A DNA stretch of 64,000 nucleotides from Kiloniellales bacterium (GTDB lineage Bacteria > Pseudomonadota > Alphaproteobacteria > Kiloniellales > J153). Location: the NCBI GenBank assembly GCA_036397065.1, contig DASWJP010000109.1:32538-96537 (forward strand), in the 5' to 3' direction. Below are positions 122 to 64,000 of this stretch, piece after piece. Numbering within the stretch: the first letter of the stretch is position 1; each line of letters begins with the position of its first letter. Position numbers and translations under genes: made by a program. The notes under the pieces were generated by a model that saw nothing but the letters and a program-made list of their open reading frames with translations, was not told the origin of the DNA and did not search any database.

Positions 122-241
122 AACAAACATCTTATATTGTTGCACACCGCAACACATTCAACACATTCCCTCGTTGCTGGCACGACGGGGCCGCCATAAA
201 TTCTCCTCGGCTGTAAACGTCACCCGAGGAAAGGCTTGGCT

Positions 242-2431: not shown

Positions 2432-2569
2432 CCCCGGCAAGACACATGCCTACGGAACAGCCCGGCCATAACGATAGCCGGATGCGTGGCTTGCGTGCCC
2501 CCTAACTCTCATTGTCGTTGAAGAGTGTGTCTTTGCGGGAGAGATGCTGGCGGCATTCCGGCTATCAGA

Positions 2570-3820: not shown

Positions 3821-3858
3821 TCGGTGCGGGTACGCCCGGCAAAAACAACATTGAACAC

Positions 3859-3884
3859 AAAAAAACCCCCGAACATGTCGGGGG
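3859..3884 (-). terminator. Rho-independent terminator on the minus strand: CCCCCGA-ACATG-TCGGGGG followed by T7.
   Basis: 7-bp GC stem at 3866-3872/3878-3884. An A7 run at 3859-3865 on the plus strand reads as T7 on the minus strand. Confidence 0.75.
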
Positions 3885-4124
3885 CGCACGGGGGTATCGG
3901 TATGGTGTCCGTTACCGGCCCAAGCGCCATTCTCCCGCCACGATCATCGTCAATTTCATATCGAAATTCTCCTCAATGTGCCGATCACACGCTAAGTGCG
4001 ATGCCGGAAGGCGTCAATAGCCGTGTCGCCTGCCGAGGGTGAAACCGATTGTTCGGGGTGGTTAGGTATCTGCATTGGAGACACCGCCTCGGCTCAAACC
4101 CAGCCGTTTTCGTGCAGCATTAAC

Positions 4125-48663: not shown

Positions 48664-50010
48664 ATGACTCAACGTGTTGCAATTATTGGTGCTGGTCCAT
48701 CCGGCCTTGCTCAGCTCCGGGCCTTTCAATCGGCCGCCGCCAAGGGCGCCGATGTCCCCGAGGTCGTCTGCTTCGAGCGGCAGGAAGATTGGGGCGGCAT
48801 CTGGAACTATACCTGGCGCACCGGCACCGACGAGCTGGGCGAACCCGTCCATTGCAGCATGTACCGCTACCTCTGGTCGAACGGACCGAAGGAATGCCTG
48901 GAGTTCGCCGACTATACCTTCGAGGAGCATTTCGGCCGGCCGATCGCCTCATACCCGCCCCGCGAGGTGTTGTGGGATTACATCAAGGGGCGCGTCGAAA
49001 AAGCCGGCGTGCGCGACAAATGCCGGTTCCGGACACCGGTGCGCCATGTCGAATACTCCGAGAAAACCGGCAAGTTCACCGTCACGGCTCATGATCTGAA
49101 TAAGGATCACGTCTACGCGGAACAGTTTGACTACGTGGTGGTCGCCTCCGGGCATTTTTCCACACCCAACGTGCCGTACTTCAAGGGCTTCGATACCTTT
49201 GGCGGGCGGGTCATGCATGCGCACGATTTCCGCGATGCGCTGGAATTCAAGGGCAAGGACATCATCATCGTCGGCACCAGCTATTCCGCCGAAGACATCG
49301 CATCGCAGTGCCACAAGTACGGCTGCAAGTCCGTGACCATCAGCTACCGGACCAATCCGACCGGCTTCCACTGGCCGGATAGTTTCAAGCAGGTTCCGTT
49401 GATCACAAAAGTCGAGGGCAACACCGTCCATTTCAAGGATGGCTCGTCAACGTATGCGGATGCCATCATCCTATGCACCGGGTATCTGCACCACTTCCCG
49501 TTCCTGCCGGACGATCTGCGGCTGAAGACCGGCAACCGCCTGTGGCCGCTGGATCTCTACAAGGGCGTCGTCTGGGAGAAGAATCCGAAGCTGATGTACC
49601 TCGGCATGCAGGACCAATTCTACACGTTCAACATGTTCGACGCCCAGGCGTGGTATGCCCGGGACGTCATCCTCGGGCGCATCGATTTGCCGTCAAAAGC
49701 CGAGATGACGAAGCACAGCAAGGCCTGGCGGGCGCGCGAGGAAAAACTGAGCACGGACGAGGAAAAGATCTATTTCCAGGGCGATTACACCCAGGAGCTC
49801 ATCGACGCGACCGATTATCCCAGCTTCGATGTCACCGGCGTCAACAAGACGTTCATGGAGTGGGAACACCATAAGCACGAAAACATCATGGGGTTCCGCG
49901 ACAACTCCTATCGTTCCCTGATGACCGGAACCATGTCGCCCAAGCACCATACGCCCTGGATCAAGGCGATGGACGACTCGATGAAGTCCTATCTGGGGAA
50001 AAAGGGTTGA
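48664..50010 (+). CDS. tmm: Trimethylamine monooxygenase (bacterial flavin-containing monooxygenase).
   Basis: FAD motif [12 protein letters not shown] signature FxGxxxHxxxF appears as [16 protein letters not shown] motif VGTSYSAED. About 447 aa, typical of bacterial Tmm. GGAGGG RBS. Confidence 0.85.
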
Positions 50011-50058: not shown

Positions 50059-50463
50059 CTAGTCCAGCATCTTGTGCAGGCGGGCATCCTTGGTCTTGAA
50101 ATGCCGGGTGAACCATTCCTGCAAATGCGCCGCCAGGGCTTCGTCCGTGTCGCGGTAGGTGCCGCGGTCGAAGTTGTCCATGATATCTCGGATGCCATCG
50201 AGCAGGCGTTCGTGATCCTCCTTGTGGTCGGCGAACTGATCGTAACCATGTTCGCGCATGATCTTTTCCTCCAGCGCGAAGTGCGCCGAGATCTTGGCGT
50301 CGATCTCGCCCAGAAAACCGGCGACCGCCTGTTTATCGATCTTGCCCGACAGTTGGGCATGAAGATCGTTGATCGCCAGAATCAGCTCTTCATGCTCATG
50401 GTCGACCGACGGAATGCCGGTTCGAAATTCATCGCGCCATTCCACAAGGGCCATCGTATTCAT
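50059..50463 (-). CDS. Bacteriohemerythrin-like protein (single-domain hemerythrin).
   Basis: WRDEFRTGIPSVDHEHEELI N-terminus. His/Glu/Asp ligand pattern (H..HE, H..E, H...H....D). Confidence 0.85.
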   Translation of the reverse strand: MNTMALVEWRDEFRTGIPSVDHEHEELILAINDLHAQLSGKIDKQAVAGFLGEIDAKISAHFALEEKIMREHGYDQFADHKEDHERLLDGIRDIMDNFDRGTYRDTDEALAAHLQEWFTRHFKTKDARLHKMLD

Positions 50464-51011
50464 CCCTGATTTGGCTGGCCGTTCCGCGATACGGCGGGGA
50501 CGTCGGGGGTGGCGAAAATGAATCCGCCGGCTTCGGCCTGGAACCCGATCACGAACCTCTGGCGCGGGGCGATCACGACATGGGCTTCCCGCTGATAGTC
50601 GAAGCCTTCGGCCCGGGGACTTTCGCGCATCCGCACGATAAGTGTATAGGAGCCGCTTGGGATGACGAAATTCTTATAGATCTGCGAGGGCCCGTCGCCG
50701 AAAAGGCCGGACGGAGACACGGATTCGCTGACGATGATCTGCCCGTCCAGCTCAACCTCAACCAGCACCGGCGTGCGTTCCCGCGTACAGTCGAGCGGCT
50801 TGCGCATGTTCGCCGGCAGGGCCGCAAGCTCTTCGGCGGTCCGGCGCCGGCATTCCTGGAGATGCTTGCCACTGTGCGCCAGGCTCAAGGTAAGCTGCGC
50901 CTTGTCGTCGTCGAAATGCCGATAGGCCGGGGTATCCGCGAAGAAGCCGAGCACCACCGCGATCAGCGCATAGACGACACCTTGTCCCATATAGCGGAAG
51001 ACATTACCCAT
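50460..51011 (-). CDS. Hypothetical protein with an N-terminal membrane anchor (183 aa).
   Basis: One N-terminal TM (GVVYALIAVVLGFFA) followed by a beta-rich soluble domain. Both ends overlap neighbouring genes (8 nt and 4 nt). No family recognised. Confidence 0.6.
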   Translation of the reverse strand: MGNVFRYMGQGVVYALIAVVLGFFADTPAYRHFDDDKAQLTLSLAHSGKHLQECRRRTAEELAALPANMRKPLDCTRERTPVLVEVELDGQIIVSESVSPSGLFGDGPSQIYKNFVIPSGSYTLIVRMRESPRAEGFDYQREAHVVIAPRQRFVIGFQAEAGGFIFATPDVPAVSRNGQPNQG

Positions 51012-52713
51012 TCGAGTCGTCTCCTCCGGCCACGGCGGGTTGCAGGTGCGGGGCAGCGGGCTTCGGCACGGCCGGCAAACCGGCGCGAAATAACTCTATC
51101 TTGCTGGCCAGCATGGTGCGATCCGCGGCGGCCGCCCAGCAGGTGAGGAGGCGCGCGCGTGGCACCCGTTTGCGCAGGTAGGGATCGCGTTCGCTGGCCA
51201 GCCGGGCGGTCATCCAATCCACCCCATAGCGGTTGAAGCATTCCCCGTCGCGGCAACCGGTAATGACCACGCCATCCGCCAAATCGCGGCTGAGCACGTA
51301 ATCGATGAACGACGGCGGCAGGGCGGCGATGCAGGGCAGGCTGAGCGTGCCGATGCCGTCGCCCGCCAGACGATCGAGCGGAGCGGCGTGATCGCAGCCG
51401 AAGACAATCACCCGGCGATCGCCGGAAAGAATGGCCGACGCGGCTTCCACCCGGTCGCGCAACTCGGGCAGCGAACGGTCGGGCAGGTCGATTCCTGGAA
51501 CCAGCGCGCTGGCCCGGCGGAACGGTGTCGACGTCGGGCACGATCCGGCGCAGATGCCGCAGGCGACGCACACGGACGCATCAACCGTGGCTTCATTCTC
51601 GAACGGCAATCCGTCGCTGCGTGGCCGCATGACGATGGCATTATAGGGACAATCGTTGGCGCACCGTTCGCACCCATTGCAGTTGTCCAGGTTCACCGTG
51701 GCTGCGGCCGGGCGCCGCACCGGCGGCAGCCAGGGCAAGGCGAAAAGCATGAACGTCAGCACCCCGGCAAATCCCCAGACGGCCCCATACGACGTGGCAT
51801 CCATCAAGGGATAGGCCGGGAGGTAAAACCAGTCGAGATTGAGGACACCGGGCACGACCGTCAGATCGGCCGGCGGATGGCTGACCGCCGGCTTGACGAA
51901 GGAGAGCGCCACCAGCATGAGGAACGTACCAACGGCCAGACCCCGTTTGGGGTTGATCCTGGGCTTGGTCACCCGTTGCAGATGAATCCACAAGACCAGC
52001 AGGAGCAACAATGGTGCCACGATATGAATGAACGTCAGCAGGGTGAAAAAGCGGTCGTCCAGCGAGTTTGGCGACAAAAAATTCCGTGCGATCGCCTCGC
52101 CGAAGATGCCGAGCCAATCGAGCCATTCTGTACTGGCAATGGCGATGTATTGCGCCAGCTCGTCCCACACCATCCAATACCCGGTGATACCGGCGACAAA
52201 AACCAGCCACAGGATAGGCGTGCCCGTGACCCATGTGAACCAGCGCGCCCCCCGATACCGGTCGAGCGCAAACTCGCGCAACATATGGACGGCCATCATG
52301 AGGATCATGCCGTCGGAGGCATAGCGATGCAGGCTGCGCATGACGCCGCCCAGGTACCACTGGTCCACGGTCAAATATTCTACCGACTCGTAGGCCTCGG
52401 TCGTGCCGGTATCGAAGAAGATGTAAACGTAGATGCCGCTGACCGCGACCACCCAATAGTAAAAGAAGCCAAGCGCGCCCAGCTGATAGAGCGGGTTCCA
52501 GGCCGCCCCGAAGATGCGGTCCAGGACCGCTTCGACGCGTTCGAATCCCCACCGCAATCCGCGTTGCACGAGCGCCACCGGCTCGCCATTCAGGCTGGCA
52601 CGGCGGCTTTGATCGCCGAGGGATTCGCTGCGGGTGGGCGCGCGCAAAGCCGGCTCAGACACTATGCGCGTTCGGCCGCGTCCGAAGCCAGGCGCGGACC
52701 AGGATCGTGCCAA
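51004..52713 (-). CDS. Fusion protein: di-heme cytochrome b (bc1/b6 N-terminal type), extra TM helices, a 2x[4Fe-4S] ferredoxin domain, and an MvhD-like (methyl-viologen-reducing hydrogenase delta subunit) domain.
   Basis: Two H-x13-H pairs (HRYASDGMILMMAVH and HIVAPLLLLLVLWIH). CNGCERCANDCP and CVACGICAGSCP motifs. MvhD-like VIVFGCDHAA...LPCIAALPPSFIDYVL...ITGCRDGECFNRYG. The start is uncertain (TTG at 52713 or GTG at 52662). Confidence 0.75.
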   Translation of the reverse strand: MARSWSAPGFGRGRTRIVSEPALRAPTRSESLGDQSRRASLNGEPVALVQRGLRWGFERVEAVLDRIFGAAWNPLYQLGALGFFYYWVVAVSGIYVYIFFDTGTTEAYESVEYLTVDQWYLGGVMRSLHRYASDGMILMMAVHMLREFALDRYRGARWFTWVTGTPILWLVFVAGITGYWMVWDELAQYIAIASTEWLDWLGIFGEAIARNFLSPNSLDDRFFTLLTFIHIVAPLLLLLVLWIHLQRVTKPRINPKRGLAVGTFLMLVALSFVKPAVSHPPADLTVVPGVLNLDWFYLPAYPLMDATSYGAVWGFAGVLTFMLFALPWLPPVRRPAAATVNLDNCNGCERCANDCPYNAIVMRPRSDGLPFENEATVDASVCVACGICAGSCPTSTPFRRASALVPGIDLPDRSLPELRDRVEAASAILSGDRRVIVFGCDHAAPLDRLAGDGIGTLSLPCIAALPPSFIDYVLSRDLADGVVITGCRDGECFNRYGVDWMTARLASERDPYLRKRVPRARLLTCWAAAADRTMLASKIELFRAGLPAVPKPAAPHLQPAVAGGDDSNG

Positions 52714-53503
52714 TGCCGATCAAACTGCTGGCGCCGACGATGAGGCCGATAAAGATGGCGTAGTCGAAACGATACCGGTCGCGGTTCGGATCGTAATACG
52801 TGCAGAACAGACGCAGCCGATTGGTCAAATATTCGAGCGTGTTCGACGACGACGAGGCGCGGCCGAAGATCAATTCGATCAAGGGTTCTGTCAAGGCCGG
52901 CGCGGTGAACTGCGACCCGTAGACCTGGCGATAGATGATCCCCTCGGCGTCGATGACCGTGGTTTGCGCCAGATGATCGTAACCGCGCGGCGACGGGAAA
53001 TAAATGAATCCCAAATTCTCCACCAAGCCCTCGATGGCGGCGGCTTCGCCACTCAGAAAATCCCAGTTCGGCAGATCGACCCCTTGGCCGCGGGCGAAGG
53101 CGCGCATCCGTTCTGGCGTATCGTCGCCCGCGTCGAAGCCGATGGTCACGACCGAGAAGGCATCCTTGCCCACCGCATCCTGCGCCACGTCGACGGCATT
53201 GCGCAGGGTCTGTACGACAATCGGGCACGAGTCGCTGCACGCTGTAAAGACCAGATTTACAACCAAGGGTTTGCCCCGGTAGTCGGACAGGCGGATCGGG
53301 CGGCGCTGCGTATCGAGAAAACCGCGATCATCCAGAGGGCGGCCGATAGCCGCCTGGCTGTAAGCGATGGCGGCGCCTTGATCGAAAGGCTCCGGCGCCG
53401 GCGCTCTGGTCTCCGCGGCCGCCTGCATGGAACCGGCGATCAACAGGATCGCGCCCAGAAACGGAAACAGGCGGGACATGTGGCGGATTTGAGGGCCGGA
53501 CAT
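52655..53503 (-). CDS. SCO1/SenC-family copper chaperone-like protein with an N-terminal signal and an extra C-terminal TM anchor.
   Basis: CxxxC appears as FTACSDSCP, with a downstream His (YDHLAQTTVID). C-terminal segment YDPNRDRYRFDYAIFIGLIVGASSLIGIG. Confidence 0.75.
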   Translation of the reverse strand: MSGPQIRHMSRLFPFLGAILLIAGSMQAAAETRAPAPEPFDQGAAIAYSQAAIGRPLDDRGFLDTQRRPIRLSDYRGKPLVVNLVFTACSDSCPIVVQTLRNAVDVAQDAVGKDAFSVVTIGFDAGDDTPERMRAFARGQGVDLPNWDFLSGEAAAIEGLVENLGFIYFPSPRGYDHLAQTTVIDAEGIIYRQVYGSQFTAPALTEPLIELIFGRASSSSNTLEYLTNRLRLFCTYYDPNRDRYRFDYAIFIGLIVGASSLIGIGTILVRAWLRTRPNAHSV

Positions 53504-53519: not shown

Positions 53520-54386
53520 CTATCCCAAAATCACGCGGTCAAGTATCGCCGCGAACAGGAGCAGGCCGAGTTGAACGAGCGACGCGAAAAAATTCACCAT
53601 CGCCGCCTTGGGTCCGGGGTTCTTGGCCAGGCGGACCGAATTCAGGACGAAATATCCGCCACCGGCCACCGCCCCGGCCAGATAGATCCATCCCATGCCG
53701 AGTGCGGCCGGCACCAAGGACAGCAAGACCAAGGCCACCGTGTGCGCCAGAATGACCTTGGCAGCCACGGCATCGCCGACCACGACCGGCAGCATCGGTA
53801 CGCCGGCGGCCGCGTATTCCTTGTGCAGGGCGGTCGCCAGGCTCCAGAAATGCGGCGGTGTCCAGAGAAAGAGCACAACCGCGAGCACGATGGGCGCGGC
53901 GGACAGCGCCGGGTCCACGGCGGAGGCACCGGCCAGCACCGCGAAGCTGCCGGCCAGGCCGCCGAGCACGATGTTCAGCCACGTCCGGTTCTTGAGCCAG
54001 ATGGTGTAGACGACGCCGTAGGTGAAGGCACCGAGAAAGACATGCAGCGCCACGGCGAAGTTGAACGTCCAGGCCGCCATGGCCACCGCCAAGGCCAGAA
54101 TGCCCAGGATCGCCCCCAGCCATAGCGGCCCGGCCGTGAACGCGCCGGTGACGAACGGACGGTTGCGGGTGCGCGCCATGCGCGCGTCCAGGTCTCGCTC
54201 AACGTACTGGTTGAACGCCCCGGCGCTGGCCGCCGACAGCAGCACGGCCACGGCGAGCACGGCAATCTTCCAGCCCGCCACCGCCGGCCCCGGCGTCACC
54301 GCCAGCCCGCCCAGGGCGCACAGCATGATCGCCAAGCCGATACGAAGCTTGAAGACGGACCAGAACTGTCCAATGGTGCTCGCCAT
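53520..54386 (-). CDS. ctaB: Protoheme IX farnesyltransferase (heme O synthase).
   Basis: Start MASTIGQFWSV at 54386. UbiA-family motifs NQYVERDLDARMARTRNRP and WTPPHFWSLA. The track ORF 53520..54857 is a false extension. Confidence 0.85.
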   Translation of the reverse strand: MASTIGQFWSVFKLRIGLAIMLCALGGLAVTPGPAVAGWKIAVLAVAVLLSAASAGAFNQYVERDLDARMARTRNRPFVTGAFTAGPLWLGAILGILALAVAMAAWTFNFAVALHVFLGAFTYGVVYTIWLKNRTWLNIVLGGLAGSFAVLAGASAVDPALSAAPIVLAVVLFLWTPPHFWSLATALHKEYAAAGVPMLPVVVGDAVAAKVILAHTVALVLLSLVPAALGMGWIYLAGAVAGGGYFVLNSVRLAKNPGPKAAMVNFFASLVQLGLLLFAAILDRVILG

Positions 54387-54427: not shown

Positions 54428-56149
54428 TCAGCTCAACGGCCAGACCTCTGACAGGAACTTCCAGTTGATGAAGTAGTACAGGACGAAGGCCAGGAAGAAG
54501 ACGCAGACCAGGACGATGGTTCCCGGCAGCTTCAATGTGCCTTCGCTGCCATAGGTCGACACCGCCCCGCCCGGAGCCACGATCGGATTGGCCTTGACCG
54601 CGGCCTCGTCGCGCACCTTGCCGAACAGGATCGAACCGACCACGACGACCACATACATCAGCCCGCCAAGCGCCGCCAATATCGCGCTGATACCGTTCAG
54701 TCCCATCATCAGGAACGCGGTTCCCGGATAATCGAAGGTAAAGATGGAATCGCTGAAGGTGATGTCCCAATGCCGGCGCGAAACGCCCAGCGTCCCGGCG
54801 CCCATCATGAACAACGAGATGCCGGAAGCCCCGATGGCGAAGATATAAGGCTGCCACCGGGCCACCCCGGGCAGGATCAACTCGCGGCGGAAGATCAGGG
54901 GGATCACCAGATAGGTGATGGCCATGAACGCCAGGGTCGTGCCCGTCACCACAGTCGCATGGAAGTGCCCGGGCACATAGAGCGTGTTATGCATCAACAA
55001 GTTGATTTGCTCGGTGCCGAGCACGACACCGGAAATGCCGCCCAGGAAGCCGAAGAGCACCAGGGACATGAACATGCCGGAGAACGCCGGATTGGCCCAC
55101 GGCGCCTGGCGCAGCCAGCCGAAAATACCCTTGTTGAAACCGCGCCGCCGCTGCGCCGCCTCGACCGCGCCGGGCAGGCTCATGCCGTGGATCATGCTGC
55201 CCAGAACGGCCAGATAGATGGCATAGCTGGTATTGAAGATCTTCCATTCGGAACTGATGCCCGGCTCGGCCAGCAAGTGATGGGCGCTGGCCAGTTGCAG
55301 GAACAGGATATAGAGCAGGAACGCCGAGCGGCTGACTTTCTCCGACAAGGGCTTGGCGCCGAGGACCAGGGCGGCGATGGCATACCAGACCGCGACTTGG
55401 GCCGAGACGTTGATCTGCTGCGACGAATGGCCCATGGCCCACCACACGATCTTGTACATCACCGTATCGATGTGGCTGATGTAGCCGACCGACCACAGGA
55501 AAGTCGGAATCAGAATGATGGCGCCGGAGGCGACGGTGAAGACCGCGATGATCGCCGCCGTGATCGCTCCGAAGGTGACCAGCGGCACCGAACCCTCGTA
55601 GGTCTTTTCCTCTTTGGCGATGACCAGCGTGCCGAAAAAAACGATACAACCGACCAGAGCGCCGACCGCGAAGAGAATCAAACCGAGATAGAAATGCGGG
55701 GCCGCCTTCATCGGCACATAAGACGTAAACATGACACTGGATTCACCCTGCAGCACGGCGACAGTCGCCATGAGCGATCCGATGACCATGAGGATGAACC
55801 CGAACCAGGCGAACTTCGGCGTCGCCAGGCGGCAATTCAACAGGATTGCCGAGGCGAAATAGAGGATCGCCATCTCGAAAAAGATGATCCAGAACAAGAG
55901 CACCGCGGCGCCGTGCGCGGTCAAAGCGGTGTAGAACCACTCCGCCGGCAGCAAATGCACCGCTGGCCAGCGGGTCAAGGCCACCAGCAGGCCGAACAGC
56001 CCGCCAACCGCCAGGAACACGACGGCAACCACGGCGTTGGCCTTGATCAAGGTTTCGGCCTTGGCATACACGCGCAAGCCGGTATCGGGGCAAACCCGAT
56101 ATTTCTCCTCTGGCCACGCCAGAGCGCCTTCCAATGCGCCTACGCTCAT
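54428..56149 (-). CDS. Heme-copper oxidoreductase subunit I, B-family (ba3)-like, lacking the canonical cross-linked tyrosine.
   Basis: All six His ligands are present (TAHG; WWAMGH; SAHH; GHFH). Helix VI reads GHSSQQ where B-family oxidases read GHPxVY. Confidence 0.85.
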   Translation of the reverse strand: MSVGALEGALAWPEEKYRVCPDTGLRVYAKAETLIKANAVVAVVFLAVGGLFGLLVALTRWPAVHLLPAEWFYTALTAHGAAVLLFWIIFFEMAILYFASAILLNCRLATPKFAWFGFILMVIGSLMATVAVLQGESSVMFTSYVPMKAAPHFYLGLILFAVGALVGCIVFFGTLVIAKEEKTYEGSVPLVTFGAITAAIIAVFTVASGAIILIPTFLWSVGYISHIDTVMYKIVWWAMGHSSQQINVSAQVAVWYAIAALVLGAKPLSEKVSRSAFLLYILFLQLASAHHLLAEPGISSEWKIFNTSYAIYLAVLGSMIHGMSLPGAVEAAQRRRGFNKGIFGWLRQAPWANPAFSGMFMSLVLFGFLGGISGVVLGTEQINLLMHNTLYVPGHFHATVVTGTTLAFMAITYLVIPLIFRRELILPGVARWQPYIFAIGASGISLFMMGAGTLGVSRRHWDITFSDSIFTFDYPGTAFLMMGLNGISAILAALGGLMYVVVVVGSILFGKVRDEAAVKANPIVAPGGAVSTYGSEGTLKLPGTIVLVCVFFLAFVLYYFINWKFLSEVWPLS

Positions 56150-56157
56150 GATCGCCT

Positions 56158-56700
56158 CTACTGTTTGTCGACGACGCGGATTTTACCGACCATGGTGTGA
56201 TGGCCGATACCGCAGAATTCATTGCACACGACAAAGAACTCGCCCGCTTCGTTGGGCGTGATGGTCAACACCAACTCATAGTTCGGGTGAACCTGGATGT
56301 TGATGTTGGTCGGTTGCAGGGAGAAGCCATGCTGCCAGTCCAGGGAGGACAGGTGCAGCCGATAGCTCTGGTCCTTTTCAAATTCCAGAACAGGCCACCA
56401 CTCCCATAGGCGGGCGATCAGGTAGACCTCGCTGCCCGGCGGCGGATGCACCACGGGTACGCCGGTATCGCCCTCCTCGCCGATCGTGTATTGATCGGCC
56501 ATGGCCTCGGCCTTGGCCGCGAAGACATCGGGATCGATGCGATAAGCCTCGTTGGAGAGATTCTGCTGACCGGCGATGTGCCAATAGATCATCGCCGAGA
56601 ACATCAATACGCCCCACAGGAACGCAATCGTGATCCAGATGATCTCCATGCGATGCAGGGGTTCGTTCCACCAGAGACCCTTGACAGGTTGTATTGCCAT
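56158..56700 (-). CDS. Heme-copper oxidoreductase subunit II, ba3-like, single TM, with an intact CuA site.
   Basis: QHGFSLQPTNINIQV and CNEFCGIGHHTM give the CuA pattern H...C-x-E-x-C-G-x-x-H-x-x-M. Confidence 0.85.
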   Translation of the reverse strand: MAIQPVKGLWWNEPLHRMEIIWITIAFLWGVLMFSAMIYWHIAGQQNLSNEAYRIDPDVFAAKAEAMADQYTIGEEGDTGVPVVHPPPGSEVYLIARLWEWWPVLEFEKDQSYRLHLSSLDWQHGFSLQPTNINIQVHPNYELVLTITPNEAGEFFVVCNEFCGIGHHTMVGKIRVVDKQ

Positions 56701-56712
56701 GGTTTGCCCCTG

Positions 56713-56901
56713 TTATTTGGCGATGGGAATTTGGGTGACTTCCATGATCCCCCAGATCAGATAGAAGACCGTCGGCATCACCACGCCGAGGAAGAGCAGC
56801 AGAAATGGATTGTCGAGCAGACGCTGCATCATCGGCACGCGTACCGCCCTGCCGCCGCTCGCCGCTTGAGCTTCACCGGATTGCGCGTTTTCAGCCGCCA
56901 T
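56713..56901 (-). CDS. Small single-TM protein (62 aa), possible oxidase subunit IIa-like component.
   Basis: ATG at 56901 after a GGAGGGGGG RBS. TM segment FLLLFLGVVMPTVFYLIWGIM. Its position directly upstream of subunit II matches ba3-type operons. Confidence 0.55.
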   Translation of the reverse strand: MAAENAQSGEAQAASGGRAVRVPMMQRLLDNPFLLLFLGVVMPTVFYLIWGIMEVTQIPIAK

Positions 56902-57033: not shown

Positions 57034-57216
57034 CTATTCGGGAGCAAATTGGCGGATCAGTGTGAAGGCAATGAGGGCAGAAGCCAACAGTATACCGAAA
57101 AAGATCACGGATCGCTGCTCGAATCGGCGGCCGGCAAAGGATTCCGCCTGGCGCAGGGCAAAATCCGCGAAGAAGTACAAGGCGATGGCGACAAGGCCGA
57201 GCGTGATCAGTTCCAT
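57034..57216 (-). CDS. Small two-TM membrane protein (60 aa).
   Basis: The ATG at 57216 overlaps the SCO1 stop by 10 nt. Two hydrophobic helices. No family recognised. Confidence 0.4.
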   Translation of the reverse strand: MELITLGLVAIALYFFADFALRQAESFAGRRFEQRSVIFFGILLASALIAFTLIRQFAPE

Positions 57217-57845
57217 TGAGACCCGAACGAGGTTTGCTGCGTCATCAGGCGCTCAAGGGCCTTGGCCATGGCCTCGGGCGTCGCATCGTGCTTCAGGTAG
57301 GTCAGCACCCGGCCATCCGGGCCGATCAGGTAGACAAAGGCACTGTGATCGACGGTGTAGGCATCGCCGCCGCCGTCACCCTTGGCAACATAGACACGAT
57401 AGTCCTGGGCCACCTGACGGATCTGTTCCGGGCTGCCGCTCAGGCCGATCATGCGCGAATCGAACGAGGCCACGTACTGGGCCAACACCGCCGGGGTATC
57501 GCGGTCCGGATCCACGGTGACGAACAGGGGTTGCACGGCATCGGCCTTGGTGCCCAGAAGCGCCATCGCGGCGACGACGGTATTCAACGTGGTCGGGCAA
57601 ACGTCGGGGCAAAACGTATAGCCGAACACCATCACTAGGTACTTGCCGCGATACGATTGGTCGGTGACCGGCTCGCCGAAATGGTTGACCAGCGAAAACG
57701 GGCCGCCCGGCGCCGCCGCATCAGTCGTGACCACCGGCAAGCCATCGACGGCCGCCTGTTCCCGCTCGCCTCTCAGCCACAACCATTCGCCAACGAGAAT
57801 CGCGACGAACACGACGATAACCGCGGCAACCCGCCCATATCTCAT
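57207..57845 (-). CDS. SCO1/SenC copper chaperone (membrane-anchored thioredoxin fold).
   Basis: Start MRYGRVAAVIVVFVAILV at 57845 after an AAGGAAAA RBS. CxxxC appears as FCPDVCP, and the conserved His as TVDHSAFVYL. Confidence 0.85.
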   Translation of the reverse strand: MRYGRVAAVIVVFVAILVGEWLWLRGEREQAAVDGLPVVTTDAAAPGGPFSLVNHFGEPVTDQSYRGKYLVMVFGYTFCPDVCPTTLNTVVAAMALLGTKADAVQPLFVTVDPDRDTPAVLAQYVASFDSRMIGLSGSPEQIRQVAQDYRVYVAKGDGGGDAYTVDHSAFVYLIGPDGRVLTYLKHDATPEAMAKALERLMTQQTSFGSQWN

Positions 57846-57909
57846 CGACGTTTTCCTTATGGACCATCGGCACTGGCGCGATGATACGACGGACCGGCCG
57901 GAATGGGTA

Positions 57910-57923
57910 TTGACATCGATCAA
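57910..57923. promoter_or_regulatory. FNR/FixK-type box TTGAC-ATCG-ATCAA in the divergent SCO1 / DUF2189 intergenic region.
   Basis: Read from sequence, 9 of 10 matches to TTGAT-N4-ATCAA. -10-like hexamers sit about 32 nt from the box centre on both strands (TATCAT on minus, TATGCT on plus). Confidence 0.65.
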
Positions 57924-58035
57924 GTGAGGTTTGCCCGGCACCGTGGTATGCTATGAATTCAGGGACAGGGTGACGGTGGGATCGGCCTCGTTTCCGTTCC
58001 GCCAAGGCAAGTCATCGCGAAGGACTCCACGGGAC

Positions 58036-58806
58036 ATGGCGCACATCGATACCGCTGCCGGGCCTCCGATCCGGCGAATCACCTTGGAACAACCTTGGTC
58101 GTGGCTGGCCGCCGGCTGGCGCGACATGTGGCAAGCGCCGCACATCAGTCTGTCTTATGGCGGGGCCTTTACGGTCATCAGCCTGGCCCTGACGGCGGGC
58201 CTGTTCGCCACCGGCTTCGAATATCTGCTGCCGCCGCTGGCGGCCGGGTTCATGTTCCTCGGGCCTTTGCTCGCGGTCGGCCTCTACGAAACCAGCCGCC
58301 GGCTGCAGGCGGGCGAGCCGGTGAGCCTGCGCCACGCCCTCTTCGTCACCACCCGGGCCCCGGCGCAACTGGCCTTCGTGGGCATTCTGCTGGCCCTGTT
58401 CCTGCTCGCCTGGATGCGTATCGCCACCCTGCTGTTCGCCCTATTCATCGGCACCCAGGCGATGCCGCCGCTGGCCGAGATCCTGCCGTGGCTGTTCTTT
58501 ACCCGGGATGGTTTGGGATTGTTGATCGTTGGCGGCGCCGTCGGTGCAGTCCTGGCTGTCACTGCCTTCGCCATCAGCGTGGTCTCGGTGCCCATGCTGA
58601 TGGTCCGCGACATCGATGCGGTGACCGCCATGATCCTGAGTGTGCGCACAGCACGGCGCAATGCCGTGGTCCTGGCCCTGTGGGCCTGGTTGATCGCGAT
58701 CCTGACCGGGGTCGGCCTGGCGACCCTGTTTATCGGTTTGACCCTGATCTTCCCTCTGGTCGGTCATGCAAGCTGGCATGCCTATCGGGATCTGAGCGGG
58801 GAGTAG
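58036..58806 (+). CDS. Polytopic integral membrane protein, DUF2189-like.
   Basis: Start MAHIDTAAGPPIRRITLEQPWSWLAAGWRDMW. 5-6 TM helices. Family assignment is from memory and tentative. Confidence 0.6.
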   Translation: MAHIDTAAGPPIRRITLEQPWSWLAAGWRDMWQAPHISLSYGGAFTVISLALTAGLFATGFEYLLPPLAAGFMFLGPLLAVGLYETSRRLQAGEPVSLRHALFVTTRAPAQLAFVGILLALFLLAWMRIATLLFALFIGTQAMPPLAEILPWLFFTRDGLGLLIVGGAVGAVLAVTAFAISVVSVPMLMVRDIDAVTAMILSVRTARRNAVVLALWAWLIAILTGVGLATLFIGLTLIFPLVGHASWHAYRDLSGE

Positions 58807-58954
58807 GCGGCGCCTCGTCATCGTCGAACAGGATGCGGTGGGCGGCGCCATCCAAATCCTCGAACTGGCCCGACTTCAATGCCCAGAGAAATGCCGCCAG
58901 ACCGAGAAGCCCCAGGAACAGGGCCACCGGGATCAGGTAAGCCAGCGCGCTCAT
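58730..58954 (-). CDS. ccoS: cbb3 oxidase maturation protein CcoS/FixS, with an unusually long C-terminal tail.
   Basis: MSALAYLIPVALFLGLLGLAAFLWALKSGQFEDLDGAAHRILFDDDE. The ATG at 58954 overlaps the ccoI stop in ATGA. Confidence 0.8.
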   Translation of the reverse strand: MSALAYLIPVALFLGLLGLAAFLWALKSGQFEDLDGAAHRILFDDDEAPPTPRSDPDRHASLHDRPEGRSGSNR

Positions 58955-61173
58955 GGCCACTCGCCCCGGCGCAACAGGTTCAGCCGCAGGGCATTCAAGG
59001 TCACCGCGATGGACGAGGCGGACATGGCCGCGGCAGCGATCAACGGCGTGACATGGCCGGCCACCGCCAGGGGCACGGCGATGGCGTTATAGCCGAACGC
59101 CAGGGCGAAGTTTTGCAGCACCAGGCGGCGGGCCAGGCGGGCGACGCGGATCGCCTCGGCCAAAGGCGCCAGGCCGTCGCCCTGCAAGATCACATCCGCC
59201 GCCGTCTGGCTGATATCCGCCGCCTCGGCGGGCGACGCCGACACGTGGGCGGCGGCCAGGGCCGGCGCGTCGTTCAAGCCATCGCCGACCATCAGCACCC
59301 GTTGGCCCGCCCGCGCCATGTCGGCCAGGCGGGCGGTCTTCTCGGCCGGCCGGCACTCGGCCTGCCAATCGGCAATACCCAGGCCCTCGGCCAGGGCACG
59401 CACCGCAGCGGGCCGGTCGCCGGAGAGTAACATGAGGGAAAATCCCTGCCGGCGCAGCCAGCCGATCAAGGCGCCCGCATCGGTCCGCGGGGCATCGCGG
59501 AAGGCGAAGCGCACCGGCGCGCGGCCTTCGACGGCCAGCCACATCTCCATCTCCGAAGCCGCCGCCCCGGTGTCGGCCACGCCGCACCAGGACCTGTGGC
59601 CCAGGCGCACCGGGCGCCCGCCGGCCGCGGCCTCCAGGCCCATCCCCGGTTCCTCGCGCACGTCCGGCGCCGCTGCCACGGGTCCGGCCGCCCGGCACAA
59701 GGCCCGCGCCAGCGGGTGCCGGCTGACGCACGCCAGGGACGCGGCCAGGCGCAGATCATCGAGCGAAACATCGCCGCCGTTCACCAGTTCCGGCCGGCCC
59801 AGGGTCAAGGTTCCGGTCTTGTCGAACACCACCGCGTCCACCTGGGCCAGACGCTCCAGCCCGTCCGCCGATTTCACCAGCACACCCCGGCGCAACAGGC
59901 GGGCAACGGCGGTCACCTGCACCGCCGGCACGGCCAGACCCAAGGCGCACGGACAGGTGATGATCAGCACCGCCACGGCGGTCATCAGGGCGCTTTGCCA
60001 CGGGGCGCCGGCAATCAGCAGCCAGCCGAGGAAGGTGGCCGCTGCCAGTCCGTGAACGGTCGGCGCATAGATCCGCGCCGCCCGGTCGGCCAAGCGCACA
60101 TAGCGGGCCCGGCCTTGTTCCGCCGCCGTCATCAGGCGCCCGATTTCGGCCAGCAGGGTGCCCTCGCCGGTGGCGGTCACCTGGATCTCCAGGGGCGCGC
60201 CCAGATTGACGGTGCCGGCGAAGACCTCGTCGCCAAGGCCGACGAGGCGCGGCAGGCTTTCGCCGGTGACCAGGCTGGTATCGATGTCGCTGCGCCCGGC
60301 GACGATGCGGCCATCGGCGGGAATGCGTTCGCCGGCTGCTACGGCGACCCGGGCACCGGTCGCCAGCGAAGCAGTGGCGACCGAGCGGCGGCGCCCATCC
60401 GCCTCGATCAAGGTCGCCGACCGGGCCCGTAAGGCCAGCAGGTTCTCGGCCGCCGAGCGCACCCGGCCGCGCACGCCCAGATCCAGGGTGCGGCCAATCA
60501 GCAGGAAGAACAGCAGCATCACCGCGGCGTCGAAATAGACCAGCGGTCCGCCGCGCACGGTTTCGAACAGGCTCATGGCGGTGGTCAGCAGAACGGCCAA
60601 CGAAATCGGCACGTCCATGTTCAACCGGCCGCCCCGGAGCGCCGTCACCGCTGAGGCAAAGAACGGCCGGCCGGCATAGGCCACGGCCGGCAGGGCGATC
60701 AGGGCCGAGACCCAGTGCAGCAGGCTGCGCGTCGCCGCGCCCATGTCGGCGGCCAGGCCGCTCCACACCGAAACCGACAGCAGCATCACATTGCCGGCGG
60801 CAAACCCGGCCACCGCCAAGGCGCGCAACAAGGCGCGGCGCTCGGTTTCGCCCGCCGCGGCGATCGCGTCCGCATCGAAGGGGGCCAAGCGGTAGCCCAG
60901 GGCCAGCACCGGCGCCAGCAGGTCCGCGGCCGGCGCCTCGCCCCGCCAGCGCAGGCGCAACCGGCGGCTGGTCAAGTTGACGCGTGCTTCCAGAACGCCG
61001 GGTTGCCCGCGCAAGGCGCCCTCGATGCGCGGAATGCAGCCGGGGCAGTGCAGGTTCTCGACTGCCAGATTCAGCTCGGCGGCGCCATCGGCGCCGGTGC
61101 GCACGTAGAGGCTGGGATCGGCCATGGCCGCCGTGTCCGCGGTCAGCGTATCCGCGTCCGTTACGGCAACCAT
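58951..61173 (-). CDS. ccoI: Copper-translocating P1B-type ATPase CcoI/FixI.
   Basis: ATG at 61173 after a GGAGGA RBS. N-terminal CPGC metal-binding domain, CPC TM motif (ITCPCALGLA), DKTGTLT and GDGLNDAP. Confidence 0.9.
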   Translation of the reverse strand: MVAVTDADTLTADTAAMADPSLYVRTGADGAAELNLAVENLHCPGCIPRIEGALRGQPGVLEARVNLTSRRLRLRWRGEAPAADLLAPVLALGYRLAPFDADAIAAAGETERRALLRALAVAGFAAGNVMLLSVSVWSGLAADMGAATRSLLHWVSALIALPAVAYAGRPFFASAVTALRGGRLNMDVPISLAVLLTTAMSLFETVRGGPLVYFDAAVMLLFFLLIGRTLDLGVRGRVRSAAENLLALRARSATLIEADGRRRSVATASLATGARVAVAAGERIPADGRIVAGRSDIDTSLVTGESLPRLVGLGDEVFAGTVNLGAPLEIQVTATGEGTLLAEIGRLMTAAEQGRARYVRLADRAARIYAPTVHGLAAATFLGWLLIAGAPWQSALMTAVAVLIITCPCALGLAVPAVQVTAVARLLRRGVLVKSADGLERLAQVDAVVFDKTGTLTLGRPELVNGGDVSLDDLRLAASLACVSRHPLARALCRAAGPVAAAPDVREEPGMGLEAAAGGRPVRLGHRSWCGVADTGAAASEMEMWLAVEGRAPVRFAFRDAPRTDAGALIGWLRRQGFSLMLLSGDRPAAVRALAEGLGIADWQAECRPAEKTARLADMARAGQRVLMVGDGLNDAPALAAAHVSASPAEAADISQTAADVILQGDGLAPLAEAIRVARLARRLVLQNFALAFGYNAIAVPLAVAGHVTPLIAAAAMSASSIAVTLNALRLNLLRRGEWP

Positions 61174-61655
61174 AGGCGATCCTCCAGAACGAAGATCGCG
61201 CCGTCCGGCGAGGTGGCGCGCAAACGCACGTCCCACTGGCCGGCGGCGAGTTGATCCACATCGGCACCGTATCGGCCCGGACCGTCCCGGACGAGATCAA
61301 TGGCCCGATCGAGATCGTCGCGCACCGGCCGGCGCAGATCACCGGAGACCGCCAAGCCTTCCACCGGCGCCCCGCTGCGGTCGGTGAAGGCGACGGTGAG
61401 GCGGGCCCCGCCGCCGGCCATCGGCTCAAGCACCGCCTTGGCCTGCCAATTCAAGGCCCGCTGCGCCTCGGCCCCGGCCAAAGTCTGGTTGTAGGCCAGG
61501 CCGCGCTGGTAGGCATCCTCGGTGCTCAGGCCGCTCCAACTCCACATGGCCAGGGCGATGTAGATCCCGTTCACGGCGATCACAAAGGCAAAGAAGGCAA
61601 GCACGGCGATCAACACGTGCTTCCCTTTCAAGGTGCGTATACCGGATCTGTTCAT
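61161..61655 (-). CDS. ccoH: CcoH/FixH cbb3 assembly protein.
   Basis: One N-terminal TM followed by a FixH-like domain. ATGA overlap with the ccoG stop. Confidence 0.8.
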   Translation of the reverse strand: MNRSGIRTLKGKHVLIAVLAFFAFVIAVNGIYIALAMWSWSGLSTEDAYQRGLAYNQTLAGAEAQRALNWQAKAVLEPMAGGGARLTVAFTDRSGAPVEGLAVSGDLRRPVRDDLDRAIDLVRDGPGRYGADVDQLAAGQWDVRLRATSPDGAIFVLEDRLWLP

Positions 61656-63151
61656 TTGCTTGGCCCGCGAAAAACGCTGTCATAGACGGCCTGATCGCCG
61701 CTGGCCGTATCGCTGACGACGAAGGTGACCTGGGCCGACTCGCCGCGCACGTCCGCCGCCGGGACGGTCAGGAACACCCGGAAGCTGGCCAGTCGGTCCG
61801 GCCCTACAGTGACCGTCGCGGTCTCGTCGGCGGCGGCCAGTATGCTCAATTGGGCCGGCACGGATCCGGAGACCGTCAGCCTGAAATCCCGCCCCTGATG
61901 CCGCTTGTTGATGATCTTGATCGTATACCCGTTGCGCACGCTGCCGTCGGACAAGGTAACGAACAGGGGATTGCGGTCGCGCAAGACGCTCAGCTCGACC
62001 GAGCCCCGGCTGCTGAAGGCGGCCAGCATGACCGCGCCGACCACGGCGATGAGCACCGCATAGACCACCGGCCGCAGCCGCGCCAGCCGGAAGCGGGGCG
62101 GCTGCCCTGTGGTGCGCCGCTGCAGGTTGGTCAGGGTGTCGTACGCAATCAAGCCGCGCGGCCGCCCGACCCGATCCATGACCCCGTTGCAAGCATCGAT
62201 GCACAAGGCACAGGTGATGCATTCGAGCTGTTGTCCGTCGCGGATGTCGATGCCCATGGGACAGACCGCGACGCATTGATTGCAGTCGACGCAATCGCCG
62301 CGTCCCTCCCAGCTGTCGCCCTTGCGGTGCGCGCCGCGCGGCTCGCCGCGAAACTCCCGATAGGTGACGACCAGGGATTCGTCATCCAGCATGGCCGCCT
62401 GGATGCGCGGCCACGGGCACATGTAGGTACACACCTGTTCGCGCGCATGACCGCCCAGCATGTAGGTGGTGAAGGTCAGCCCGCCGATCGCCATGTAGGC
62501 AATCGCCGGCGCCTGAAACCGGACCAGATCGGCCAGCAGGCCGGGCGCATCGGCGAAATAGAACACCCAGGCACCGCCGGTGAGCACGGCTATCACCAGC
62601 CAGGCCGCATGCTTGACAGCCTTGCGCGCGATCTTTCCCACCGTCCAGGGCATGGCGTCGCCGCGAATGCGCGCCGCCCGGTCGCCTTCCAGCAGCCGCT
62701 CGACGGCGATGAACAAATCCGTCCACACCGTCTGCGGGCACATATAGCCGCACCAGACGCGGCCGAACAGAGACGTGGCGAGAAACAGCGCCAGGGCGGC
62801 GATGATCAGCAGGCCGGTCAGGTAGTAGACCTCCTGCGGCCAGATCTCGATGAAGAAGAAGTAGAAACGCCGCGCCGGAAAATCGATCAATACCGCCTGA
62901 TCCGGCGCGTTCGGCCCCCGGTCCCAGCGGATCCACGGGGTCAGATAATAGATGGCCAGAGTCACGGCCATGATCGCCCACTTCAGGCGGCGAAAGACGC
63001 CGTGCGCAGCCTTGGGATGAATCCGCAGCCGCTTGGCATAGAGCGAGCGCGCCGCCGATTTGTTGACCGGCTCGGCGGTTGAACGCTCCACCCCCGCCGC
63101 CGCTGCGGCGCGGTTCATCGACGCGCCGGTGATGTCCGCCATCGTATCCAT
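61652..63151 (-). CDS. ccoG: CcoG/FixG polyferredoxin-like membrane protein.
   Basis: CGYMCPQ, CTYMCPW and CVDCNQCVAVCPMGIDIR...CITCALCIDAC motifs. Confidence 0.9.
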   Translation of the reverse strand: MDTMADITGASMNRAAAAAGVERSTAEPVNKSAARSLYAKRLRIHPKAAHGVFRRLKWAIMAVTLAIYYLTPWIRWDRGPNAPDQAVLIDFPARRFYFFFIEIWPQEVYYLTGLLIIAALALFLATSLFGRVWCGYMCPQTVWTDLFIAVERLLEGDRAARIRGDAMPWTVGKIARKAVKHAAWLVIAVLTGGAWVFYFADAPGLLADLVRFQAPAIAYMAIGGLTFTTYMLGGHAREQVCTYMCPWPRIQAAMLDDESLVVTYREFRGEPRGAHRKGDSWEGRGDCVDCNQCVAVCPMGIDIRDGQQLECITCALCIDACNGVMDRVGRPRGLIAYDTLTNLQRRTTGQPPRFRLARLRPVVYAVLIAVVGAVMLAAFSSRGSVELSVLRDRNPLFVTLSDGSVRNGYTIKIINKRHQGRDFRLTVSGSVPAQLSILAAADETATVTVGPDRLASFRVFLTVPAADVRGESAQVTFVVSDTASGDQAVYDSVFRGPSK

Positions 63152-63190
63152 CTGGTGCTACCCGATCCGGCCTACGAAGGCCGGTGCTGG

Positions 63191-64000
63191 CTACTCGCCG
63201 CCGCCGAGCGCATGGACATAGACGGCCAACTGCTTGATGGCCGCCGCATCCAGCCGGCCGATCCACGCGGGCATGGCGCCGGCGCGGCCGCCGGCGACGG
63301 TCTGGATCAGCGTATCGCGATCGCCGCCATAGAGCCAGATGCCATCGATCAGGTTGGGCGCGCCCAATTCGTGCGAGCCAACCCCGTCTTCCTGATGACA
63401 GGCCGTGCATTGTTCGGCAAAAACGTCGGCGCCACGGGCGATAGCTTCCGCGTCCCCGGCTTCGCCGGACAAGGACAGCATGTAGGTCACCACATCCTCC
63501 ACCTGTGCCTGATCGAGGATGCCGTCGCGCAGGAACGCGGGCATGTCGCCGACGCGCGCCTCGTCGTGTCCGGAGCGGATACCGAAGCGGATGGTCTGGG
63601 CGATGTCGTCCAGAGTGCCGCCCCACAACCAGTCGTCGTCATTGAGGTTGGCATAGCCCGGCCCGCCCTGGGCGCCCAGGCCGTGGCATTGCGAGCAGTT
63701 CACGGCAAACGCCGAACGGCCGCCCGCCAAGGCGAATTCGAGCAGCGCCGGGTCAGCCTCGATCTCCGCCAAACTGGCATCGACAATGCGGCTGGTATAA
63801 CCGATTTGCGCCTGCTTGGCCTCGGCCAGACTCTGGGCCACCACGGCGCGTTGCGAATGACCGAGCAGGCCCGTGGTATAGCTGCTCACCAACGGCCACG
63901 CCGGCATCAGGATCCAATAGCCAACCGCCCAGAGAATGGTGGCATACCAAGTCCACAGCCACCAACGGGGCAGCGGCGTGTTCAGTTCCTTGATGCCGTC
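63191..64000 (-). CDS. ccoP: cbb3-type cytochrome c oxidase subunit III (di-heme cytochrome c). Partial: the 5' end lies beyond the window.
   Basis: Two CxxCH motifs (CSQCH, CTACH). The frame stays open to the window edge and reads ..DGIKELNTPLPRWWLWTWYATILWAVGYWILMPAWP. Confidence 0.9.
   Translation of the reverse strand, partial: DGIKELNTPLPRWWLWTWYATILWAVGYWILMPAWPLVSSYTTGLLGHSQRAVVAQSLAEAKQAQIGYTSRIVDASLAEIEADPALLEFALAGGRSAFAVNCSQCHGLGAQGGPGYANLNDDDWLWGGTLDDIAQTIRFGIRSGHDEARVGDMPAFLRDGILDQAQVEDVVTYMLSLSGEAGDAEAIARGADVFAEQCTACHQEDGVGSHELGAPNLIDGIWLYGGDRDTLIQTVAGGRAGAMPAWIGRLDAAAIKQLAVYVHALGGGE

Follow-up and report, generated by a model that had tools for sequence, protein, structure and literature searches.

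Which reaction can be expected of a heme-copper enzyme that has retained every histidine ligand of an oxidase but carries a glutamine in place of the cross-linked active-site tyrosine? The question is raised by a gene cluster in a 64,000-nucleotide stretch of DNA from a Kiloniellales bacterium (assembly GCA_036397065.1, contig DASWJP010000109.1, positions 32,538 to 96,537), referred to below as the window, and by its gene for a catalytic subunit I in particular. Alignments, structure prediction, a phylogeny and a comparison of homologous loci were used to answer it. The locus is likely to be a nitric oxide (NO) reductase (NOR) operon of the eNOR family in a Kiloniellales-type alphaproteobacterium.

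Ligands and helix VI site of subunit I

Translation of the subunit I gene located the motifs TAHG (residues 77-80), GHSSQQ (240-245), SAHH (288-291) and PGHFH (393-397), which contain the complete sextet of histidine ligands, H79, H241, H290, H291, H395 and H397. The best solved homolog by sequence is the ba3 oxidase of Thermus thermophilus (1ehk/1xme; HMMER, E ~1e-41). In the HMMER alignment the ba3 segment WWTGHPIVYFWL lies over WWAMGHSSQQINV of subunit I with GHPIVY on GHSSQQ; H241 takes the position of the CuB ligand H233 of ba3, and Q245 that of the cross-linked Y237. The AlphaFold2 (AF2) model of subunit I (predicted local distance difference test, pLDDT, 81; predicted template modeling score, pTM, 0.85) matched best the fold of the Aquifex aeolicus oxidase 7DEG, with T. 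thermophilus ba3 just behind (TM 0.76-0.80); the copy of the PDB that was compared with the model contains no eNOR structure. An earlier note, written from the letters of this DNA, had described a subunit I with all six histidine ligands, a glutamine for the cross-link tyrosine and a B-family-like fold. The motifs are present as it described them, its glutamine is the residue aligned with ba3 Y237, and ba3-type structures are the top matches of the model.

The glutamine is not a peculiarity of one genome. The motif GHxxQQ(I/V)N did not vary among 314 non-identical relatives (63-100% identity), and GH-x-x-Q-Q-(I/V)-N was found in the subunit I of all 82 loci that were fetched. Across the alignment of the 314 relatives, 190 positions of subunit I were at least 98% conserved. 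Invariant or nearly so were the six histidines, Q244, Q245, N247, E92 in helix II, W255, Y256, S269, E270, Y280, Q285, S318 and H321. Conservation of this strength points to purifying selection and argues against a decaying oxidase as well as against a chance or degenerate feature. Among these residues, S318, Y256 and S269 are by alignment the equivalents of the channel-type residues S309, Y248 and S261 of ba3, and at two further positions ba3 Y244 is replaced by valine and T312 by histidine.

Probable assignment to the eNOR family

A neighbor-joining tree was calculated from an alignment of 35 sequences (529 columns); its support values are bipartition counts over 200 bootstrap replicates. 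The Gln-type sequences, which come from Proteobacteria, from Thermus and Thermomicrobium megaplasmids and, in one case, from a haloarchaeon, grouped together at 95.5% (the QQ clade). The canonical ba3-type clade was separate with 100% bootstrap support and the query fell outside of it. Placement inside the proven B-family oxidases, the outcome that the earlier note had named as speaking against its view, was therefore not seen, and its proposal of a Tyr-less, NOR-type lineage in place of a canonical oxidase can be narrowed to what appears to be eNOR. The nearest neighbors of the QQ clade are four mostly archaeal GHxxQY sequences that have kept the tyrosine (joint clade 72%). This topology matches the published view of NORs derived from O2-reducing ancestors.

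Two groups of more distant sequences were also observed. The closest Tyr-retaining relatives, P0130 (Hodarchaeales, Asgard lineage), P0134 (Thermoproteota), P0132 and P0150, carry GHxxQYxN at 35-43% identity; they share E92, Y280 and the asparagine six residues after the helix VI histidine (H+6) with eNOR and are a natural comparison set for the loss of the tyrosine. Five further relatives of 29-34% identity (P0185, P0195, P0206, P0265 and P0267) have LYH in helix VII and PGYFH or PAYxH in helix X and keep the tyrosine at H+4; they correspond to the 'J family', in which tyrosine serves as a heme ligand (bioRxiv 10.1101/592808).

The residue that replaces the tyrosine differs between families and is Q in eNOR, N in sNOR and CuANOR/bNOR, E in cNOR/qNOR and D in gNOR (PMC8756737 Table A4, after Hemp & Gennis 2008), where the D of gNOR replaces an active-site histidine according to Murali et al. 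(PMC11214002). Subunit I carries the glutamine diagnostic of eNOR. A CuA cupredoxin subunit II, which is required of the family (PMC11214002), is encoded beside it, and the operon contains genes for subunits II and I, heme O synthase, SCO and a 'scaffold' protein as in Ferrigenium. The hallmarks of the other families were not found: the GHPxVY tyrosine of ba3-type O2 reductases is missing; glutamine and CuA are present instead of the H+4 glutamate and the heme c or quinol entry of cNOR/qNOR; three histidines and CuA take the place of the His-to-Asp exchange and the CuA-less subunit II of gNOR; and the nearest asparagine is at H+6, not at H+4 as in sNOR/bNOR, whose gene cluster also differs in that here a heme O synthase gene is inserted and a cytochrome b/Fe-S fusion gene follows SCO. 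The eNORs keep B-family-like K-channel residues including the equivalent of ba3 S309, which is also found in bNOR and is missing in sNOR, where a glutamate at a unique location replaces it (PMC11214002). The invariance of S318 in the relatives of subunit I fits eNOR and argues against sNOR; the invariant helix II residue E92 is present as well.

A search with the Thermus copy (L081 9001-10686, T. thermophilus NAR1 plasmid) gave 120 relatives from Thermus, Anaerolineae, Caldilineales and Armatimonadota, and nearly all full-length sequences among them, Chloroflexi included, contained GHxxQQ(I/V)N. GHFK replaces GHFH in 21 of these 120 relatives and in the Thermus copy itself, which fits the published ligation of the low-spin heme by His and Lys in some eNORs (PMC11214002). 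NO reduction has been shown biochemically for eNOR: the purified enzyme of Rhodothermus marinus, with heme As in both heme sites, reduced NO with a kcat of 0.68 per s and did not reduce O2 with a range of donors (PMC11214002). The family also includes the cytochrome a1-like protein of Magnetospirillum magnetotacticum (PMC11214002), and the subtype 'ba3-a1, renamed eNOR' is widespread in marine Alphaproteobacteria (Degli Esposti et al., PMC8879329). The genomes nearest to the window are Kiloniellaceae/Kiloniellales metagenome-assembled genomes (MAGs) at 93% identity, and the 90%-identity cluster of the identical protein includes a Kiloniellales MAG sequence. Tanimura and Fukumori are said to have reported in 2000 that the M. 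magnetotacticum homolog has no cytochrome c oxidase activity and that the Magnetospirillum genes mcaII-mcaI-hosA stand for II, I and heme O synthase, the arrangement seen in the window. Judged by these features, subunit I very probably belongs to eNOR.

The tyrosine of helix VII

In C-family enzymes the cofactor tyrosine is supplied from helix VII, six residues before the HH pair. The tyrosine of helix VII in subunit I, Y280, lies 10 residues before H290, and the position at -6 is occupied by L284, so that a tyrosine in the C-family style is not present. The nearest relatives in which helix VI still has its tyrosine (GHxxQY) conserve Y280 as well, which indicates that Y280 predates the loss of that tyrosine and is no relocated replacement. 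By this comparison, Y280 is a feature of the clade and not a relocated cofactor. The earlier note had counted the 10 residues correctly; its caveat that the tyrosine might have been relocated is not upheld, given the -10 position and the presence of Y280 in relatives with an intact helix VI tyrosine. A role in a K-like proton path is more plausible for Y280 because ba3 Y244 is a valine in subunit I. No evidence of tyrosine migration was seen in the Tyr-less families by Murali et al. 2024 (PMC11214002).

Subunit II and a small upstream peptide

Matches of subunit II to Pfam COX2 and NCBIfam CoxB were weak, as expected of a divergent subunit. Nevertheless, the CuA ligands H124, C159, E161, C163, H167 and M170 are all present and conserved to at least 95% in 77 homologs, in line with the ba3-like subunit II with an intact CuA site that had been read from the letters. 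E20, located before the transmembrane helix, aligns with E15 of ba3 subunit II and is likewise invariant or nearly so.

Immediately upstream of the subunit II gene, an open reading frame (ORF) of 39 amino acids (aa) was detected in 80 of the 82 loci searched, and its version on a Thermus plasmid is 56% identical. It probably encodes a small, unannotated third subunit, analogous to subunit IIa of ba3. In the window this ORF is concealed within a 90-aa, GTG-extended entry of the ORF list. A positional counterpart is the small peptide that co-purifies with the Bacillus qCuANOR (PMC3475470), and the Bacillus CbaC peptide is a further analog.

Operon order and accessory genes

The genes and sites of the cluster are listed in Table 1. 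The order of 39-aa peptide, II, I, (heme O synthase), SCO, cytochrome b6-like/Fe-S/MvhD-like fusion, 183-aa protein and (hemerythrin) is conserved in about 70 loci of Alpha-, Beta- and Gammaproteobacteria and a Defluviimonas plasmid. It is also the order published in a 2026 preprint for the eNOR operon of Ferrigenium straubiae (II, I, heme o synthase, sco1, scaffold protein, cytochrome b/Fe-S proteins), and the same order was found in the betaproteobacterial loci that were fetched.

Table 1. Positions of the predicted eNOR cluster, its active-site segments and adjoining features in the window
Feature	Position	Strand	Remarks
Predicted bacteriohemerythrin	50059..50463	minus	last cluster gene; NCBIfam NF033749 99 bits, above cut-off
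Conserved 183-aa protein	50460..51011	minus	N-terminal transmembrane helix; syntenic in ~55 loci
Membrane fusion protein	51004..52713	minus	cytochrome b6-like N-terminal domain, two [4Fe-4S] motifs, MvhD/FlpD-like domain; Pfam Cytochrome_B, Fer4, FlpD
SCO1/SenC-like copper chaperone	52655..53503	minus	thioredoxin fold, C-terminal transmembrane segment; Pfam SCO1-SenC E = 7e-13
Heme O synthase (CyoE/CtaB)	53520..54386	minus	NCBIfam TIGR01473 248 bits, above cut-off; syntenic in most loci
Predicted eNOR subunit I (catalytic)	54428..56149	minus	573 aa; Pfam COX1 E = 2e-64; AF2 model; QQ clade
Helix VII segment AFLLYILFLQLASAHH	55277..55324	minus	direct translation; H290/H291 metal ligands; Y280, Q285 invariant
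Helix VI active-site motif GHSSQQIN	55409..55432	minus	direct translation; H241 metal ligand, Q245 for cross-link Tyr; Q244, N247 invariant
Predicted eNOR subunit II	56158..56700	minus	one transmembrane helix and cupredoxin domain with CuA site
39-aa single-transmembrane peptide MMQRLLDNPFLLLFLGVVMPTVFYLIWGIMEVTQIPIAK	56713..56832	minus	directly upstream of subunit II
FNR/FixK/NnrR-type palindromic box TTGACCTAAATCAA	57006..57019	.	~175 nucleotides upstream of first operon gene
60-aa predicted two-helix membrane protein	57034..57216	minus	between SCO1 and operon; homologs at same position
Canonical SCO1/SenC copper chaperone	57207..57941	minus	Pfam SCO1-SenC E = 1e-51; upstream in some close relatives

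The likely start of the heme O synthase gene is an ATG at 54386 with a GAGGA ribosome-binding site, and the longer ORF overlaps subunit I. Across loci the SCO gene is found directly downstream of cyoE or of subunit I. It is overlapped by the ORF of the fusion protein, so the true start of the latter is uncertain. The cytochrome b6-like domain of the fusion protein has four helices, further transmembrane helices are present, and PDB matches were obtained to cytochrome b6 and to the ferredoxin domains of HdrA/FwdF; the gene is syntenic in about 60 loci. Two copies of it, the first being the longer one, occur in the betaproteobacterial loci L049, L050, L057 and L065, as described for Ferrigenium. 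Searches with the 183-aa protein gave no match in Pfam, NCBIfam or the PDB; a candidate counterpart is the 'eNOR scaffold protein of unknown function' in the Ferrigenium preprint. Hemerythrin, which could bind O2 or NO, is encoded at the cluster end in most alphaproteobacterial loci. Homologs of the 60-aa protein were found in about 15 alphaproteobacterial loci (40-74% identity).

The last gene of some eNOR operons in Beta- and Gammaproteobacteria encodes a second COX1-family paralog of about 450 aa and 24-26% identity (L080 6160-7557; also L055, L064, L065, L066, L068, L073 and L074); the window contains none. This paralog keeps the heme ligands and the helix VI histidine. It has lost the HH pair of helix VII (aligned AY), which makes the usual B-site metal binding impossible.

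Regulation and genomic context

Strict TTGA-N6-TCAA sites occur only twice in the window, at the position given in Table 1 and at 57910-57923. The second site belongs to the upstream SCO1 gene and lies in the divergent region between SCO1 and a DUF2189 gene. The loose form TTG-N8-CAA was not enriched in the window (8 found, 9.8 expected), and only the strict form is informative. Of 79 homologous loci, 55 have the exact box at a distance of at most 300 nucleotides upstream of the small ORF. Its density there was 2.57 per kb, compared with 0.079 per kb elsewhere in the same loci (33-fold), and its position upstream of the operon recurs across three proteobacterial classes.

A nirS gene, 46-56% identical to Thermus NirS, was found within 8 kb of the operon in 12 proteobacterial loci, one of which, from a Kiloniellaceae MAG, encodes a subunit I of 93% identity to that of the window. 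All three T. thermophilus plasmid copies that were examined are accompanied by genes for a multicopper oxidase and an Rrf2 regulator; radical-SAM and cytochrome c genes lie near two of them and nirS near one. The linkage to nirS, the context on Thermus plasmids and the FNR-type box point to an NO-linked or low-oxygen use of the enzyme.

In the window, the operon abuts ccoS, ccoI, ccoH, ccoG and ccoP. These genes form a cbb3 maturation cluster at 58730-63907 (-) that encodes CcoS (FixS), a P-type ATPase (CcoI/FixI), FixH, FixG and a dihaem cytochrome c (CcoP), and ccoNOQ is presumably located just past the window end. Elsewhere in the window, two molybdopterin oxidoreductase genes (731 aa and 1001 aa) around an MFS transporter gene, which could be nitrate- or formate-related, were mapped to 236-7870, and a flavin-containing monooxygenase-like gene (448 aa) at 48664-50010 (+) is convergent with the end of the eNOR cluster.

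Comparison with known systems

The locus shares with the eNOR family (Hemp & Gennis 2008; Murali et al. 2024) the glutamine for tyrosine, the six histidines, the CuA subunit II, the K-channel-like residues, the heme O synthase and SCO genes in the operon and the His/Lys variants within the clade. The range of the family covers Alpha-, Beta- and Gammaproteobacteria, Thermus, Chloroflexi and haloarchaea. The proteobacterial set of 39-aa peptide, cytochrome b6-like/Fe-S fusion, 183-aa protein and hemerythrin does not belong to the R. marinus enzyme as characterized. A further difference is that the operon of the window has no heme A synthase gene. The ba3 oxidase (PDB 1EHK, 1XME, 3S8F) is similar in its 13-helix subunit I, its CuA subunit II, a small extra peptide gene and the Y248/S309-type residues. 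It differs in Y237, which is glutamine here, and E92, Q244, N247, Y280 and Q285 are specific to the clade of the window protein.

Like the window protein, sNOR and qCuANOR/bNOR derive from the B family, have no cross-link tyrosine and use a subunit II with CuA; a SenC/SCO gene is adjacent and a small peptide is encoded upstream. Reduction of NO is proven for bNOR and proposed for sNOR. Asparagine occupies the tyrosine position in the Bacillus qCuANOR and, by homology, in the Nitrosomonas sNOR (Heylen & Keltjens, PMC3475470). The qCuANOR cluster consists of genes for a small peptide, II, I, SenC and a 6-helix membrane protein, cbaD/orf1 (PMC3475470). The differences to the window are thus asparagine at the tyrosine position, the 6-helix membrane protein in place of the cytochrome b/Fe-S fusion and, in sNOR, the absence of an S309 equivalent. 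With cNOR/qNOR (NorB) the protein shares the superfamily, the predicted reaction and the lack of a cross-link tyrosine, whereas the glutamate at H+4 of NorB ligates FeB, electrons enter via heme c (NorC) or quinol, and a cytoplasmic proton channel is absent.

Proposed reaction

In the proposed reaction, a periplasmic carrier would deliver electrons to the CuA site of subunit II, from where they would pass to a low-spin heme with the ligands H79 and H397 and on to a binuclear center of a high-spin heme (H395) and a non-heme metal (H241, H290 and H291). At this center two NO molecules would be reduced to nitrous oxide (N2O) and water. This two-electron reaction would not need the His-Tyr radical cofactor, whose place is taken by Gln245. 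Protons would probably be drawn from the cytoplasm through a path resembling the K-channel, and the reaction would then be electrogenic; E20 of subunit II, S318, H321, S269/E270, Y256 and perhaps Y280 are candidates for such a path. Heme O synthase would supply the farnesylated heme precursor, the SCO proteins would load CuA, and a CRP/FNR-type regulator would turn the operon on at low oxygen or NO. We infer from the literature the NO reductase activity, the metal identity, the heme type and the proton uptake; this applies equally to electrogenicity, to Fe or Cu as the metal, and to a heme type for which heme O synthase is encoded in the operon and heme A synthase is not.

The proteobacterial eNOR core may also be part of a larger membrane complex together with the 39-aa subunit, the cytochrome b6-like/2x[4Fe-4S]/MvhD-like protein, the 183-aa protein and hemerythrin, although this idea is speculative and on the whole doubtful.

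Weighing the alternatives

The sequence features, the clade membership, the synteny, the regulatory box and the linkage to nir genes were directly observed. Several points nevertheless weigh against a reading as an eNOR-type NO reductase. NO reductase activity has been shown in only one member of the family, at low turnover, and a function as NO reductase in vivo would rest on this one purified homolog and on context. The family assignment rests on the diagnostic residue, on published operon descriptions, on taxon overlap and on a tree without type sequences: R. marinus eNOR, Magnetospirillum McaI and Nitrosomonas NorY are not in the tree, and they were absent from the top matches of three homolog searches, which started from the query, from a betaproteobacterial copy and from the Thermus copy, and of a genome scan. 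The comparison of the metal site with known structures is at fold level only. No COX15/CtaA (heme A synthase) domain was detected among the cluster genes; many eNOR operons carry CtaA, which does not strictly define the family. The scanned ORFs of the window include no nir, nor or nos gene, the cco neighborhood fits microoxic respiration equally well, and the FNR-type box cannot tell NO reduction from O2 reduction.

Two of the alternatives concern the type of enzyme. The sNOR family, represented by norSY-senC-orf1 of ammonia oxidizers and the Bacillus qCuANOR type I and also proposed to reduce NO, resembles the locus in its pair of subunits with CuA, behind which a SenC/SCO gene and further ORFs are located, and in the small peptide gene upstream of subunit II, as in the Bacillus cluster. 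In addition, N247 is invariant two residues past the tyrosine position, and the invariant membrane glutamate E92 could match the 'unique glutamate' reported for sNOR (PMC11214002). However, every relative has glutamine at the aligned position that carries asparagine in sNOR (PMC3475470; PMC8756737 Table A4). The gene after senC encodes the 6-helix CbaD/Orf1 there, whereas heme O synthase and the cytochrome b/Fe-S fusion are encoded here. The S309 equivalent that sNOR is missing is present, and no nitrifier sequences occurred among 240 close relatives or the best 80 genome loci. An sNOR is therefore extremely improbable. An initial reading of the locus as norSY-senC-orf1, based on the SenC gene and the CuA subunit, was rejected because of glutamine in place of asparagine and the composition of the cluster; plasmid matches from Geobacillus and Deinococcus, considered as sNORs, carry GHPLVY and GHAIVY and proved to be ordinary ba3 oxidases. 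A terminal O2 reductase or O2 scavenger without the canonical tyrosine, in which Y280 or Y256 might serve as electron and proton donor, would agree with the B-family fold, the intact CuA site, the adjoining cbb3 assembly genes, an FNR/FixK box typical of microoxic oxidases and the O2-binding hemerythrin of the cluster. Both tyrosines are invariant, and a role as high-affinity oxidase has been argued for the related Tyr-less sNOR of Nitrosomonas europaea (PMC6967387). Against this stand the lack of O2 reduction by the R. marinus eNOR with a range of donors and the lack of tyrosine migration in Tyr-less families reported by Murali et al. (both PMC11214002). Y280 and Y256 also occur in relatives that keep the helix VI tyrosine, Y256 in ba3 too, and are thus no replacement, and Y280 is separated from the HH pair by 10 residues (about 15 A of helix rise), compared with the 6 of C-family enzymes. 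Oxygen as the physiological substrate is thus very unlikely.

The enzyme could also serve another role, such as NO detoxification only, another N-oxide or peroxide reaction, sensing, or a module of a quinol-linked complex. The conservation of the fusion protein, the 183-aa protein and hemerythrin across about 55-60 loci, the low turnover of the sole purified eNOR and the lack of denitrification genes in the window would agree with this. The linkage to nirS in many loci and the context of the Thermus denitrification island argue for NO as the substrate instead, and N2O formation by purified eNOR has been published (PMC11214002), which leaves such a role unlikely. The assignment of the locus to an eNOR-type NO reductase is preferred accordingly.

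Significance

Annotation pipelines give eNOR-type enzymes the name 'cytochrome c oxidase subunit I' or even 'cbb3-type', as they do for the public relatives of subunit I; both names are misleading, and subunit II frequently remains a 'hypothetical protein'. The literature already covers the family, the diagnostic substitution, the activity and the occurrence in marine Alphaproteobacteria, and the substitution itself is no discovery. Less explored are the 39-aa peptide, the cytochrome b6-like/Fe-S fusion, the 183-aa protein, hemerythrin and the conserved regulation of the FNR/FixK type. If the larger complex considered above did exist, NO reduction could be wired to the quinol pool or to a cytoplasmic redox partner at the Fe-S or NAD(P)H level, and the energy-converting electron path would be unlike that of any characterized NOR. 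In a window without a canonical nor gene, the identification as eNOR would place NO reduction among the metabolic capacities predicted for a marine Kiloniellales-type alphaproteobacterium, and eNOR-type enzymes are a large, under-counted source of N2O.

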